Sequence record: MN882349.1
Strand: one strand, 5' to 3'
Length of the DNA stretch: 64,000 nt
From: Escherichia phage Ec_Makalu_003
The translations under genes were made by a program, and so were the position numbers. Positions 15,922-19,387 of this stretch are shown piece by piece. The notes under the pieces were generated by a model, which worked only from the letters and a program-made list of their open reading frames with translations, ran no database searches and was not told the origin of the DNA. How positions within the stretch are numbered: position 1 is the stretch's first letter; each line of letters starts with the position of its first letter.

Positions 15922-16320
15922 TTAAGCTAGTCGAGTGAGTTTATAAATTGTTTTAAAGCATAGAATTTTGATATCGTCTAAAACGCTCTGTAACGAGCTA
16001 TCAACATCATTATAAATCTCACTAGCCATTTGCGTTAACTCTTGCAAATAGGCAATTTCGCTAATCTCCTTGCGGACGACCAACGTTGGCTGATAACGAC
16101 CAGTGATCCCAATATTGGTTTCAGTGAAATTATCAACCAATTCTTGCATTTCAAGATAGAACTCTTCTAGAGCCTTATGTTTTGCATAAGATCCAGGACC
16201 AGTTACCCCAAAATGCGCAGAATGCATATAAGTAACACTCATCAGACATTCACCGATAAAGCGGTCAACTTTATTAGCTTTCCCATCTTCGGACGTCTTT
16301 CGAAAATCACTGAATTTCAT
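15922..16320 (-). CDS. hypothetical protein, tentatively ferritin/Dps-like
   Basis: Start reassigned to 'MKFSDFRK' after a GGAGAATC RBS; 'HSAHFGVTGPG..HKALEEFY' resembles the Dps ferroxidase-site pattern as far as I recall it. Confidence 0.3.
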   Translation of the reverse strand: MKFSDFRKTSEDGKANKVDRFIGECLMSVTYMHSAHFGVTGPGSYAKHKALEEFYLEMQELVDNFTETNIGITGRYQPTLVVRKEISEIAYLQELTQMASEIYNDVDSSLQSVLDDIKILCFKTIYKLTRLA

Positions 16321-16609
16321 GTTCTCGATTCTCCACATTATGCAGCATAACAAATTGGTTTGCGGCATATTCCCCCATAATAAAACACTGCTTAGAATCC
16401 ATACATTTACTACGAGCATACATCTTCATAATATGGGCATGAAACTTCTGGCTGGTTTCAATGGAAGGTGATATTTTGTTTACATATACTATCATTGCAC
16501 CGTCGAAATAATCAGTAAAGTCACCAGTTGGATCATATTGATCAGCACTGACACTTCCGACCGCAGTCAAGCATATTGCCGCTGTTAGAGTTTTACGAAT
16601 AAATGACAT
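16307..16609 (-). CDS. exported small protein, rI-like (lysis-inhibition regulator) by position and architecture
   Basis: 100 aa; N-terminal signal or anchor segment; sits next to tk where T4 has rI. Confidence 0.4.
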   Translation of the reverse strand: MSFIRKTLTAAICLTAVGSVSADQYDPTGDFTDYFDGAMIVYVNKISPSIETSQKFHAHIMKMYARSKCMDSKQCFIMGEYAANQFVMLHNVENREHEIQ

Positions 16610-16642
16610 AAGTCATTCCCCCAGATTTAAAATATTCAGTTA

Positions 16643-16650
16643 TATTTATA
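16643..16650 (-). promoter_or_regulatory. late-promoter-like TATAAATA upstream of rI-like gene
   Basis: minus-strand TATAAATA about 34 nt upstream of the ATG, inside a stem-loop. Confidence 0.4.
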
Positions 16651-16677
16651 ATCTGGGGCTTTATTTATGATTAACTC

Positions 16678-17274
16678 TTAGTTGGTAGTGCCATCAATAA
16701 AATGTTTACGGCACACAGAGACATATTTATCCTCTGCACCAACTTCTATTTGAGCACCATCGCGAATAACATTACCCTCTTTATCTACACGAAGGACCAT
16801 TGTTGCTTTCTTGCCACAATGACAAATACCCTTCATTTCGACCAGTTTATCAGCAAATGCCATCAATGCAGCAGATCCTTCAAATAGATTGCCCTGAAAG
16901 TCAGTGCGAAGACCATAACACAGGACAGGGATATTTGCATCATCAACAAGCGCACACAAGCCTAAAACATGCTCTTTAGTCATAAATTGGGCTTCGTCTA
17001 CAAAAACTGCATCTGGACGCCATCGATCCGGTCTACGCTTACCTAACGATTCACGATAAACCAAGTCGAAAAGATCATCCGATTCAGTGAAGGTGATCGC
17101 TGGAGCACTTAGGCCAATTCGGGAAACAACTTCACTTTCTGAATCTCGATTATCAATCGCTGGCTTAAGAATTAATACTCGCATATCACGTTCGGTATAG
17201 TTATAAGCACTTTGTAACAGGGAAGTTGATTTGCCAGCGTTCATAGATGCATAGTAGAAATATAATTGCGCCAT
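16678..17274 (-). CDS. tk: thymidine kinase
   Basis: 198 aa; P-loop 'SMNAGKST'; C-terminal Zn-binding 'CHCGKKA..CRKH'. Confidence 0.9.
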   Translation of the reverse strand: MAQLYFYYASMNAGKSTSLLQSAYNYTERDMRVLILKPAIDNRDSESEVVSRIGLSAPAITFTESDDLFDLVYRESLGKRRPDRWRPDAVFVDEAQFMTKEHVLGLCALVDDANIPVLCYGLRTDFQGNLFEGSAALMAFADKLVEMKGICHCGKKATMVLRVDKEGNVIRDGAQIEVGAEDKYVSVCRKHFIDGTTN

Positions 17275-17567
17275 TAATTAATCTCCAAAAATCCAGCAAG
17301 ACCTAAGCCGATATAAGTCCAAATACAAAGTAAAAAGAAGCAAACACCCATAACAAAGATAAATCCGCGTAGTGTCTTTGGATAACCTACCCAATATTCC
17401 CGACCATCTTCTAACCGGATCAGCTTATTTCCTTGAGAGTCCATATCAATTACAACATGTTTATTTCTGGATTGTAAAAGATATTGCTTGACAATCTCAA
17501 TACCCGCCATAATAACAATAACGAAATTGAAAGTCCACATAACAAGGTTAATGATAGTCTCAAGCAT
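17274..17567 (-). CDS. predicted membrane protein
   Basis: 97 aa; two hydrophobic segments. Confidence 0.5.
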   Translation of the reverse strand: MLETIINLVMWTFNFVIVIMAGIEIVKQYLLQSRNKHVVIDMDSQGNKLIRLEDGREYWVGYPKTLRGFIFVMGVCFFLLCIWTYIGLGLAGFLEIN

Positions 17568-17802
17568 TTTCTATCACCTCCACCCAATCAGGGGTTTCCT
17601 GAAAGACTCCTTCGCCTTCATGATGGTCGCAACCTTTATTGCTGCAATACATCCACCAATCCCACATTCCCCACGGTAAACGCTGCATATCGTCGTTACA
17701 GCAAGTGAAGATGATAGGCCAACCACATCTAACACATCGGCAGTTTTCCTTCATGTGAGCGGTATTAGGCTTCTTCATAGATGACTCCAATATAATCGAC
17801 AT
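17560..17802 (-). CDS. Cys/Trp-rich small protein (putative Zn-binding)
   Basis: 80 aa; 'CRCVRCG..CCND..CSNKGCDHH'. Confidence 0.45.
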   Translation of the reverse strand: MSIILESSMKKPNTAHMKENCRCVRCGWPIIFTCCNDDMQRLPWGMWDWWMYCSNKGCDHHEGEGVFQETPDWVEVIENA

Positions 17803-18005
17803 TTACATGTAGGGCAATGCGGTTCTTTAATATAATACCCGTCTGTCTTTGGAACACTAACAGGAGCGGTTTTTATATTGTATTCAGTGAAACAACGAAA
17901 ACAAGTTACGTTTTCTACAGACTGACGTTTAACCCAATCGCCGGAATATAGATCATTTTTATTTGCCATATTCAACCACCACAATATTGATATCTGGAGT
18001 AGCAA
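17775..18005 (-). CDS. Cys-rich small protein (putative Zn-ribbon)
   Basis: 76 aa; 'CFRCF..CPTCKC'. Confidence 0.4.
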   Translation of the reverse strand: MLLQISILWWLNMANKNDLYSGDWVKRQSVENVTCFRCFTEYNIKTAPVSVPKTDGYYIKEPHCPTCKCRLYWSHL

Positions 18006-18414
18006 TATTAATGATTTCTTCTACGCATTCCCACTCAAGGCCACCGATACCGCAACCGATTTTAGGGATATAGAAAGGCTGTATAGCACCTTCAAAAACA
18101 TCATTGAGAGACTCAAATCCTTTCAGGATAGCACTATATTCAGCATTTGGACCAGGTCGGAATTGGGTATAGAGATTCACCCCGCACCAGTTATAACCAT
18201 TAACTTGATGAGTCCAGACACTAAACCCACCCAGCTTTTCTACCTTACCGCGAGAAGTTTGCTTGTCAATCTCTAACGCTTGCGGGAACTCTTTTGCGAT
18301 ATCCGCAGCAATACCAGCGCCCATAGTATGAAAACAATTACAACCATGAATTAAATGACCGTTTCCTTGTTTAAACAGGGCGATGAGATCGCCCTTTACA
18401 GTATCAATAATCAT
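17959..18414 (-). CDS. macro-domain protein (ADP-ribose binding/processing)
   Basis: 151 aa; 'HGCNCFHTMGAGIAADIAKEFP' and 'IPKIGCGIGGL' match macro-domain core motifs. Confidence 0.7.
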   Translation of the reverse strand: MIIDTVKGDLIALFKQGNGHLIHGCNCFHTMGAGIAADIAKEFPQALEIDKQTSRGKVEKLGGFSVWTHQVNGYNWCGVNLYTQFRPGPNAEYSAILKGFESLNDVFEGAIQPFYIPKIGCGIGGLEWECVEEIINIATPDINIVVVEYGK

Positions 18415-18429
18415 AATATAAACCTCTAA

Positions 18430-18789
18430 TTAGTCACGGGAAGACAACCCAGCCATAAAACGGCTTAACAGTGTGTCGCGATAAGCAAAGCATAATTGCT
18501 TATCAGGGGCAGTATCACACAGGTTACGTTTTGTTTTAGCAAAGCTGGCAATACTCAGATCCCACGCTCGATTTTTTCGTTTTTCATCTCGGCCTTGTTT
18601 ATAGGCTTCGTCGAGTTCAAGTGCGATAAAATCGCTACACATGTTATCATTATCACAGAAGGTTTTAATGATCTTTTTGTTGATCTCAAACCCTTTGTAT
18701 TCGAACTTTGGATAAGGGCGCTCATTACTAGCAAGCGCACCAGCAGAGAGCATCATAGCAATCATAGCAATTACTGTCAACTTTTTCAT
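18430..18789 (-). CDS. secreted/periplasmic protein of unknown function
   Basis: 119 aa; N-terminal signal peptide; four Cys. Confidence 0.5.
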   Translation of the reverse strand: MKKLTVIAMIAMMLSAGALASNERPYPKFEYKGFEINKKIIKTFCDNDNMCSDFIALELDEAYKQGRDEKRKNRAWDLSIASFAKTKRNLCDTAPDKQLCFAYRDTLLSRFMAGLSSRD

Positions 18790-18796
18790 AGATTCC

Positions 18797-19387
18797 TCAA
18801 TAGCGTTTAGTTTTAAGAATGCCTTTACTCTTTAGATGGTTAGCCTTTTTTAGTACGTCATCAGCATAACCTAACCCGGCTTTATAGTTCCATCCTGCAT
18901 TGTAAGAAGCTAGCGCGAGTCGGATATTACCGTTTCGAACATCCAGCCAGTATGCTAACTCATCCATCGCGTAGAATGCAGAAACCTCGCGATTCATGAT
19001 AAAGTTGATAGTCTGGCGATCACTCATTTTAACACCGCGCTTTGCATTTTTCGCTTTCACCGTTTTAAGGTAATTTTGAAATAATCCATAAGCATGATGA
19101 TTTTTCTTTGGTGCTAAGTTTGCACCCGCGCTTGATTCTTGCCATGCGATACCCGCTAGGATGTGGCCTAACCCCTTTCCGTTATAGCGAATATTCGGAT
19201 GGTCATTTTTCAACTTACCGCTTTTCTCGAATTGCTCGCCGTATTGATAAGCGAAATGTAAATTATCTAGTTGGTGTGCTGTAAAGTTGTCTATCGGCGC
19301 TTTTTTGATCGGTGCGCTAGTCGATGCGTGTGTAGCACCAACGGCTAGTGACAGACTCAATACTATCGCTTTTAGAACTTTTAACAT
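18797..19387 (-). CDS. secreted lytic transglycosylase (SLT domain)
   Basis: 196 aa; signal peptide; catalytic 'AWQESS..AYGLFQ' and 'SYNAG' motifs. Confidence 0.85.
   Translation of the reverse strand: MLKVLKAIVLSLSLAVGATHASTSAPIKKAPIDNFTAHQLDNLHFAYQYGEQFEKSGKLKNDHPNIRYNGKGLGHILAGIAWQESSAGANLAPKKNHHAYGLFQNYLKTVKAKNAKRGVKMSDRQTINFIMNREVSAFYAMDELAYWLDVRNGNIRLALASYNAGWNYKAGLGYADDVLKKANHLKSKGILKTKRY

Follow-up and report, generated by a model that had tools for sequence, protein, structure and literature searches.

A Predicted Exported Lytic Transglycosylase and Its Coupled Neighbor Vs in an RB49-like Krischvirus

Results

Identity and Synteny of the Genes

Two adjacent minus-strand genes of Escherichia phage Ec_Makalu_003, vs.1 and vs, encode proteins that are predicted to be exported from the cytoplasm. 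We analyzed a stretch of 64,000 nucleotides (nt) of this phage (sequence record MN882349.1; hereafter the window) and established the identity and conservation of the two genes, their coupling and export signals, the fold and the catalytic motifs. The evidence well supports that Vs.1 is an early, Sec-exported and catalytically equipped lytic transglycosylase, not the endolysin, and that Vs is co-expressed with Vs.1 and very probably exported too. We hold with moderate confidence that vs.1 and vs form an accessory and dispensable module that remodels periplasmic murein before lysis and that is separate from the M15 endolysin and from the lysis inhibition exerted by rI.

The window belongs to an RB49-like Krischvirus. 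Its 3.6 kb at this locus present 99.8% identity to Escherichia phage Ec_Makalu_001 and 97.4% identity to RB49, and a total of 58 Krischvirus-type records match them. An earlier reading of this DNA that was made without database searches (hereafter the sequence-only reading) had singled out three minus-strand open reading frames (ORFs), and all three lie exactly where it had placed them: 16307-16609 (100 amino acids, aa), 18430-18789 (119 aa) and 18797-19387 (196 aa). These are the orthologues of rI (the antiholin), vs and vs.1 of T4, and their products present, respectively, 25%, 26% and 52% identity to their T4 counterparts. Relative to RB49, the differences are mainly found at third codon positions (9 of 14 in vs.1, 14 of 19 in vs and 6 of 9 in rI), which indicates that the three ORFs are real genes under purifying selection.

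The same reading had presented these genes as a cluster, but the cluster is not a new one: they belong to the syntenic T4 block rI-tk-...-tk.4-vs-vs.1-regB. Nor are they all adjacent, since rI is separated from vs by tk, three small ORFs and a macro-domain gene. The RB49 map reads, on one strand, rI.-1, rI, tk, three small ORFs, tk.4, vs, vs.1 and regB, with a "putative endolysin" beyond, and the T4 order is rI, rI.1, tk, tk.1-tk.4, vs, vs.1 and regB. The functional unit is the coupled pair vs.1-vs, and rI belongs to a separate and well-studied pathway. In phage W115, the corresponding products are labeled "lytic transglycosylase domain-containing protein" (196 aa), "valyl-tRNA synthetase modifier" (119 aa) and "macro domain protein" (151 aa). 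An SLT match of vs.1 was reported in six T4-like genomes by Nolan et al. (2006), who proposed "some role in cell lysis" and referred to PSI-BLAST evidence already given in the T4 genome review (2003). The SLT assignment of vs.1 is already published and annotated in some GenBank records, and the novelty of the finding is low because a correct observation re-discovers annotated genes of the T4 family. Full-text searches of the searchable literature returned no functional study of vs.1, and NCBIfam contains no family for Vs.1, Vs or RI.

The Vs.1 Transglycosylase

The vs.1 gene (18797..19387, minus strand) encodes a 196-aa precursor of a predicted exported family-1 lytic transglycosylase. The predicted mature protein is about 175 aa long (19.7 kDa; pI 9.9). 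The Pfam SLT domain (PF01464) was found at residues 76-167 with a score of 26.2 bits relative to a cut-off of 21.3 (E = 6.2e-6). The protein was further assigned to PHROG 600 (6e-60), which also contains T4 Vs.1 (NP_049725), and its position in the order regB-vs.1-vs-tk.4 is conserved; it is a member of the T4 Vs.1 orthologous group. Vs.1 also adopts the three-dimensional fold of goose-type lysozymes and SLT enzymes, and its structural matches include the inactive mutants MltE-E64Q and Slt-E503Q (PDB entries). It consists of a single domain without lipobox and without cysteine, and its N-terminal part contains a helical segment specific to the family.

Alignments of 19-22 homologues, down to 40% identity, revealed that the following residues are invariant or nearly so: E84, S86, H97, A99-Y100-G101, F103-Q104-N105, E143, W147 and S161-Y162-N163-A164-G165 (N163 and A164 being nearly invariant in the first alignment). 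The motifs GLxQ and (A/S)YNxG are present as G101-L-F-Q104 and S161-Y-N-A-G165. The codon of the predicted catalytic Glu84 (WQ-E-SS) is located at 19136..19138 (minus strand). The pair E84-S85 is invariant in the alignments, and Glu84 falls on Glu64 of E. coli EmtA/MltE when the family profile "laaiawqEssag...ayGmfq" is aligned with "ITAIIAIESGGN...AIGLMQ". In the profile alignment, SYNAG of Vs.1 falls on AYNAG of Slt70, which has QES at its catalytic Glu. The sequence-only reading had described 18797-19387 as an SLT-family protein with QESS, GLFQ and YNAG motifs, and this description is borne out by a Pfam score above the curated cut-off, by the motifs and by an intact catalytic Glu.

Relatives of Vs.1 were detected with tblastn in 2085 phage records, of which 2046 carry a near full-length copy. 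They are found in T4-like phages of Escherichia, Klebsiella, Salmonella, Aeromonas, Vibrio and Acinetobacter, in Ackermannviridae and in Felix-O1-like phages, and the phages of these 2085 records use differing endolysin types. The relatives of Salmonella phage Vi01 (2495-3112 of its locus) and of the Felix-O1-like Shigella phage Sf17 (2501-3049 of its locus) both possess a signal peptide and the E-S motif. The Sf17 gene is immediately preceded by rIIA-rIIB, and the spanin genes are found 1.2 kb beyond it. In both proteins, the mature chain also has a cysteine close to either terminus, suggestive of a terminal disulfide.

Two other classes of enzymes were considered and rejected for Vs.1. The protein does not resemble a signal-anchor-release (SAR) endolysin: its hydrophobic region is short and ends in a conserved AXA site, the phage encodes a separate M15 endolysin and the T4 orthologue is transcribed early. 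Nor does it resemble the specialized transglycosylases of secretion and conjugation systems, since its neighbors are regB, vs and a macro-domain gene and no plasmid-borne relative of the VirB1/P19 type was detectable among 72,556 plasmids.

Export Signals

Signal peptides were scored with our own heuristic of n-, h- and c-regions, not with SignalP. According to this heuristic, all three ORFs begin with a basic n-region, a hydrophobic core of 10-14 residues and an AXA-type site. The predicted signal peptide of Vs.1 is MLKVLKAIVLSLSLAVGATHA (codons 1-21; 19325..19387, minus strand), followed by STS and cleaved at THA/STS after residue 21; it is conserved in essentially all homologues. For Vs, we predicted the signal peptide MKKLTVIAMIAMMLSAGALA followed by SNE (cleavage ALA/SNE after residue 20), and for RI the N-terminus MSFIRKTLTAAICLTAVGSVSA followed by DQY (cleavage VSA/DQY after residue 22). 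The T4 proteins begin in the same way, with MRKALLAGLLAISMMAHS before SEH in Vs.1 and MTKILVLCIGLISFSASASA before DTS in Vs.

We then used the Vs.1 profile to retrieve 71 homologous loci from IMG/VR. A signal peptide was recognized in all the distinct Vs sequences of these loci (60 out of 60) and in all the Vs.1 homologues with a correctly called start, including those of Vi01 and Sf17. As a control, the heuristic was applied to the 35 annotated coding sequences of the RB49 region. Only four of them were flagged, namely rI, vs, vs.1 and a small membrane ORF, and the cytoplasmic enzymes (tk, macro domain, regB and M15 endolysin) were all negative. The signal-like segments noticed by the sequence-only reading in all three proteins are thus supported by the tripartite heuristic and by their conservation in homologues. 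Both the export signal and the catalytic Glu, whose absence that reading had named as grounds for its refutation, are present, and the two checks favor its observation. RI possesses the weakest hydrophobic core of the three, with a maximum 19-residue hydropathy of 1.22, which fits a SAR-like segment. T4 RI shows signal-anchor-release behavior.

Coupling and Expression of vs.1 and vs

A sigma70-like promoter, TTGACT-17-TATTAT, was found in the gap between regB and vs.1 (19422..19450, minus strand) with a consensus scan (10 out of 12 matches) and would drive the expression of the pair. This putative promoter is followed by the Shine-Dalgarno (SD) sequence AGGAGA and then by the ATG of vs.1. The stop codon of vs.1 lies inside GAGGA, the SD sequence of vs, and the ATG of vs is found 7 nt further on. 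The start of vs lies between -8 and +7 nt from the stop of vs.1 in 56 of the 71 loci. The vs gene is located 0.5-1.2 kb downstream of vs.1 in another eight loci and is absent from the remaining seven (four of Aeromonas phages and three of distant giant phages).

In the Aeromonas loci L044, L051, L052 and L071, which have no vs, an ORF of 140-146 aa with a signal peptide is found just ahead of the macro-domain gene (about 4870-5800), and most of its copies carry a lipobox-like ...G-C motif. The sigma70-like site that scores best in this region of the window is TTGACA-17-TATGAT (11 out of 12; TG upstream), located at 18752-18780 (minus strand) in the first codons of vs. It could have arisen by chance within the Lys/Leu-rich codons of the signal peptide, or it could be an internal promoter for the macro-domain gene.

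Omics data from T4 classify both vs.1 and vs as early at the RNA level and middle at the protein level, and both proteins were detected. This suggests that Vs.1 and Vs are made well before lysis.

Fitness Data from T4

Early expression of the pair, its dispensability and its effect on fitness are taken from T4 and are extended here to the window by analogy. In the HIDEN-SEQ preprint, which reports transposon insertions across T4, both vs (30 out of 32 TA sites hit) and vs.1 (46 out of 52) are non-essential. Between LB and M9Glc, vs is the most depleted gene (log2 fold change of -2.19; adjusted P = 0), and the authors report that deletion of vs hampers plaque formation only on M9Glc, a phenotype that they read as nutrient-dependent. 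On M9Glc, vs.1 was also depleted (-0.87; P = 0.0055; adjusted P = 0.155). In the LB control of the same preprint, vs and vs.1 present 26.6 and 22.6 reads per site, relative to 179 for regB, 290 for tk.4, 265 for vs.4 and 652 for vs.3. Insertion mutants of vs and vs.1 are thus about 10-fold under-represented relative to their neighbors in LB; rI, sp and tk.4 show no such effect. This pattern is the one that a shared pathway would produce, but polarity of vs.1 insertions on vs would produce it as well.

The Vs Protein

The vs gene (18430..18789, minus strand) was identified from PHROG 1256 and synteny and encodes a precursor of 119 aa; the protein is small and predicted to be helical and possesses a signal peptide and four cysteines. 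The predicted mature protein is about 99 aa long (11.6 kDa; about 11 kDa in T4). Vs matches PHROG 1256, "valyl tRNA synthetase modifier", at 3.9e-33. T4 Vs, encoded at 5387-5734 (minus strand) of the T4 locus and annotated "valyl-tRNA synthetase modifier", belongs to the same family. A precomputed assignment places Vs in Pfam PF26829, and our Pfam scan of 18430-18789 yielded nothing significant. The sequence-only reading had described this ORF as unknown and carrying four cysteines; the cysteines are conserved across the family, but the ORF corresponds to the annotated gene vs.

The four cysteines are arranged as C-x5/6-C and C-x8/10-C with variable spacing, and each pair is located at a turn between predicted helices. 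Such variable spacing would fit loop-closing disulfides better than a metal site. The AlphaFold2 model of Vs is helical, with a predicted local distance difference test (pLDDT) score of 74. Fold searches with Vs returned generic helical matches only, with no informative structural neighbor and no inhibitor family, and a sequence search of solved structures found nothing. The Vs family is small (46 clusters at 90% identity). Among 1.84 billion representative proteins, we found 20 Vs clusters at 50% identity, all of them 50-134 aa long, and no fusion of Vs to SLT or to another domain. We also considered Vs as a paralogue of the periplasmic domain of RI, based on a shared C-x5-C and helix, and rejected it: the profile-profile probability was 2.6% over nine columns that covered the signal peptides only.

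The predicted signal peptide, the paired cysteines and the coupling to the gene of an exported enzyme are hard to reconcile with the label "valyl-tRNA synthetase modifier", which implies a cytoplasmic protein. Binding to valyl-tRNA synthetase requires a cytoplasmic location, whereas the signal peptide and the four putatively loop-closing cysteines found in every member predict a different one for Vs. The label reportedly goes back to work of the 1960s-80s on a tau peptide of about 10 kDa, on vs mutants and on effects in valS(ts) hosts, and the ORF is said to have been assigned when the region was sequenced.

Neighboring Genes

The rI gene (16307..16609, minus strand) encodes an antiholin, the regulator of lysis inhibition, with a weakly hydrophobic N-terminal segment for export or anchoring. 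The sequence-only reading had called it rI-like, and it matches Pfam Antiholin (PF24205) at 1.9e-23 and the PHROG "lysis inhibition" at 5e-26; the order rI.-1-rI-tk is shared with T4 and RB49. RI resembles T4 RI (PF24205) in its syntenic position, in its weakly hydrophobic N-terminal segment and in a cysteine pair, spaced C-x6-C here and C-x5-C in T4 RI (25% identity). Next to rI, the longest ORF of rI.-1 (15922-16419, minus strand) is 165 aa long and shares 113 nt with the 3' end of rI; in RB49, it is annotated from an internal ATG (132 aa, MKFSDFRK...), which leaves an overlap of only 14 nt. Its product matches the PHROG "starvation-inducible transcriptional regulator".

The endolysin (22639..23028, minus strand) is a cytoplasmic M15 peptidase without signal sequence, identified by Pfam Peptidase_M15_4 (4.4e-12), the PHROG "endolysin" (7.5e-69) and the annotation of RB49. 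These matches agree with the sequence-only reading that it is a separate enzyme, distinct from the SLT protein. T4 possesses vs.1 alongside the lysozyme e, so the presence of vs.1 is independent of the endolysin type. Directly upstream of the endolysin gene, five consecutive small ORFs (54-88 aa; 23057-24060, minus strand) encode strongly hydrophobic products, each of which falls in a separate PHROG of unknown function. Their products may be lysis-related membrane proteins, since the genus lacks the T4 e gene at that spot.

Immediately downstream of vs, the orthologue of T4 tk.4 (17959-18414, minus strand) encodes a macro-domain protein that matches DarG-type ADP-ribosyl glycohydrolases at 1e-13. 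The HIDEN-SEQ preprint recently named its T4 orthologue AdfM, an anti-DarT2 factor. Between tk and tk.4, where T4 has tk.1-tk.3, we found three small ORFs (17274-17567, 17560-17802 and 17775-18005, minus strand). One encodes 97 aa with two transmembrane-like segments; the other two are rich in cysteine and match PF23895 and PF23903, the Pfam families named "phage zinc binding domain". At a larger scale, the GC skew turns from negative to positive at about 31-32 kb (window about 30000-33000), consistent with transcription units that change from the minus to the plus strand.

Discussion

Under the interpretation that we favor, vs.1 and vs would be transcribed and translated early as a two-gene unit. 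The Vs.1 precursor would be exported by the Sec pathway and cleaved by signal peptidase to release a soluble, single-domain family-1 lytic transglycosylase into the periplasm. With Glu84 as its putative acid/base catalyst, Vs.1 would cut the MurNAc-GlcNAc bonds of the host sacculus and leave 1,6-anhydroMurNAc ends. Vs, translated right after Vs.1, would be exported likewise and would take a small helical fold stapled by two loop-closing disulfides, where it may act with or on Vs.1 as a partner, an activator or a restraint. The pair would be active during the latent period, long before holin triggering, and would remodel or loosen the murein. It might thereby condition the sacculus, for instance by shortening glycan strands or by making more room during the shutdown of host wall metabolism, and so raise the phage yield, with a larger effect when cells grow slowly in minimal medium. 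Its action would depend neither on the true endolysin (an M15 peptidase in this phage, lysozyme e in T4) nor on the rI antiholin, a mere neighbor in the syntenic block. The enzyme activity of Vs.1, its periplasmic location, its partnership with Vs and the physiological purpose of the pair are what we infer from these data.

The role of Vs within this scheme is more tentative than the scheme itself. It is possible, though we lean against it, that Vs is a secreted, disulfide-stabilized periplasmic protein that partners or controls Vs.1 in the murein-remodeling module, and that this function explains the minimal-medium dependence of vs instead of tRNA charging. The valyl-tRNA synthetase assignment would then reflect a mis-mapped ORF, or a secondary or post-lysis association.

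Several observations weigh against the interpretation that we favor. The match of Vs.1 to SLT is modest at the sequence level (E = 6e-6) and the Foldseek E-values are weak (0.01-0.1). A search of solved structures with the Vs.1 sequence yielded nothing meaningful, the best match being an immunoglobulin chain (E = 0.095). T4 e mutants fail to lyse even though they possess vs.1, which indicates that Vs.1 alone cannot destroy the wall. T4-like phages of Aeromonas, Vi01 and Felix-O1-like phages possess vs.1 without vs, so Vs is not obligatory for Vs.1. Marchin, Neidhardt and McClain are said to have assigned Vs to cytoplasmic valyl-tRNA synthetase by classical genetics and biochemistry; if this assignment is correct, Vs is not purely periplasmic. 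In T4, the effect of vs.1 insertions on M9Glc does not remain significant after multiple-test correction, and these insertions may be polar on vs. Finally, the purpose proposed for the pair goes beyond what was observed and is our own suggestion.

Alternatively, Vs might truly be a cytoplasmic modifier of valyl-tRNA synthetase, with an adjacency due to synteny or operon economy, and Vs.1 might act alone in the periplasm; the minimal-medium phenotype of vs would then reflect translation or amino-acid supply. We regard this as somewhat unlikely. It agrees with the annotation in all records, with the nutrient-dependent interpretation of the HIDEN-SEQ authors, with the phage groups that carry vs.1 without vs and with the stronger depletion of vs relative to vs.1 in M9. 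It is opposed by the Sec-type signal peptide of every Vs homologue, the conserved cysteines and the tight coupling to the gene of an exported enzyme, and by the LB data, where mutants of vs and vs.1 are equally under-represented. Classical in vivo effects on valS(ts) hosts reportedly favor it too, provided that this ORF corresponds to the classical vs locus. Another possibility is that Vs is a periplasmic, immunity-like inhibitor that restrains Vs.1, or another lysozyme-fold enzyme, until lysis, by analogy with Spackle and gp5 lysozyme in T4, Tsi3 and Tse3, or PliG and g-type lysozyme, such that loss of Vs would be more harmful than loss of the enzyme. The size of Vs, its predicted export, its helical and disulfide-type architecture and its position directly after the enzyme would suit such a role. 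The M9 depletion of vs insertions (-2.19) does exceed that of vs.1 insertions (-0.87), and inhibitor complexes of PliG/g-type lysozyme and Tse3/Tsi3 are among the structural neighbors of Vs.1. We nevertheless doubt it, given the generic fold matches of Vs, the equal under-representation of both mutants in LB and the many phages that do without vs.

Other alternatives concern the moment and the mode of action of Vs.1. The sequence-only reading had suggested a role in lysis timing. As an auxiliary lysis enzyme, Vs.1 would matter only late, when it would speed up or complete the destruction of the wall with the endolysin or set the time of lysis with RI and the holin. The muralytic fold, the presence of rI in the same block, the position of the Sf17 homologue between rIIA/rIIB and the spanin genes and the role in lysis proposed by Nolan et al. 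(2006) all point in this direction. However, the RNA is early and the promoter is of an early type, Sec-dependent export requires no holin, and insertions in rI show no fitness change where those in vs and vs.1 do. These observations, together with the failure of T4 e mutants to lyse despite vs.1, make an auxiliary lysis enzyme improbable. It is still less probable that the pair mediates superinfection exclusion, a role that the sequence-only reading had suggested for the SLT protein, or resistance to lysis from without through an altered wall or periplasm that blocks secondary phages. Its products are early, non-essential and predicted to be periplasmic, as are Imm and Sp of T4, but they present no similarity to either, murein cutting is expected to aid penetration, not to hinder it, and exclusion does not predict a fitness effect that depends on the growth medium. 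Finally, Vs.1 might be a catalytically dead murein binder or scaffold, or might remain tethered to the membrane by an uncleaved signal anchor in the manner of SAR endolysins. The activity of Vs.1 is a prediction and the HHAYG stretch before GLFQ is unlike typical lytic transglycosylases, but the strict conservation of the catalytic Glu-Ser, GLFQ and SYNAG and the short h-region (about 12 residues) with a conserved AXA site, unlike SAR domains, render this reading very improbable.

The closest known counterparts of Vs.1 are T4 Vs.1 (NP_049725; PHROG 600) and its orthologues in Straboviridae, which share the type of signal peptide, the motifs and the place between regB and vs. Identity to T4 Vs.1 is 52% over the mature protein, and the Krischvirus protein differs notably only in the stretch that joins its signal peptide to the conserved N-terminal helix, which is longer by about 14 residues. 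Sequence similarity to bacterial family-1 lytic transglycosylases is marginal. In contrast to Slt70, MltC, MltD and MltE/EmtA of E. coli and to Slt and MltF of P. aeruginosa, Vs.1 is a single domain of 175 aa. Unlike the bacterial enzymes of this family, it lacks a lipobox and superhelical, LysM or ABC-type accessory domains, and it possesses a phage-specific N-terminal helical segment (F35..Q39..N42..A46YxxG50) and the HHAYG stretch. In contrast to EtgA, VirB1, IpgF and P19, it is not encoded beside an envelope-spanning machine, and its candidate partner Vs is unrelated to rod proteins. Other phage muralytic enzymes, such as lambda R, phiKZ gp144, T7 gp16, phi6 P5 and the SAR endolysins P1 Lyz and phage 21 R, are main late endolysins or virion entry parts, whereas Vs.1 appears to be early and dispensable, carries a predicted cleavable signal peptide and is not the endolysin. 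T4 Spackle (Sp), a small helical periplasmic protein with a signal peptide that acts on gp5 lysozyme, offers an analogy for Vs and Vs.1. However, Vs presents no sequence or fold match to Sp, and Sp targets the enzyme of the superinfecting phage and is not encoded beside it.

More than 2000 virulent phages with known sequences encode exported transglycosylases of the Vs.1 type; they are T4-like, Vi01-like and Felix-O1-like, and many are candidates for phage therapy. What retains interest is the biology of a secreted third wall-cutting enzyme and the conflict of the textbook function of Vs with its sequence features. Knowing the role of Vs.1 could explain the reported minimal-medium dependence of vs, could correct a long-standing vs annotation that has been copied into hundreds of genomes and could yield a small, naturally secreted muralytic enzyme for the toolbox. 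A third enzyme of this kind, secreted early and acting beside the endolysin and the tail lysozyme, would imply that the sacculus of the infected cell is actively managed before lysis.

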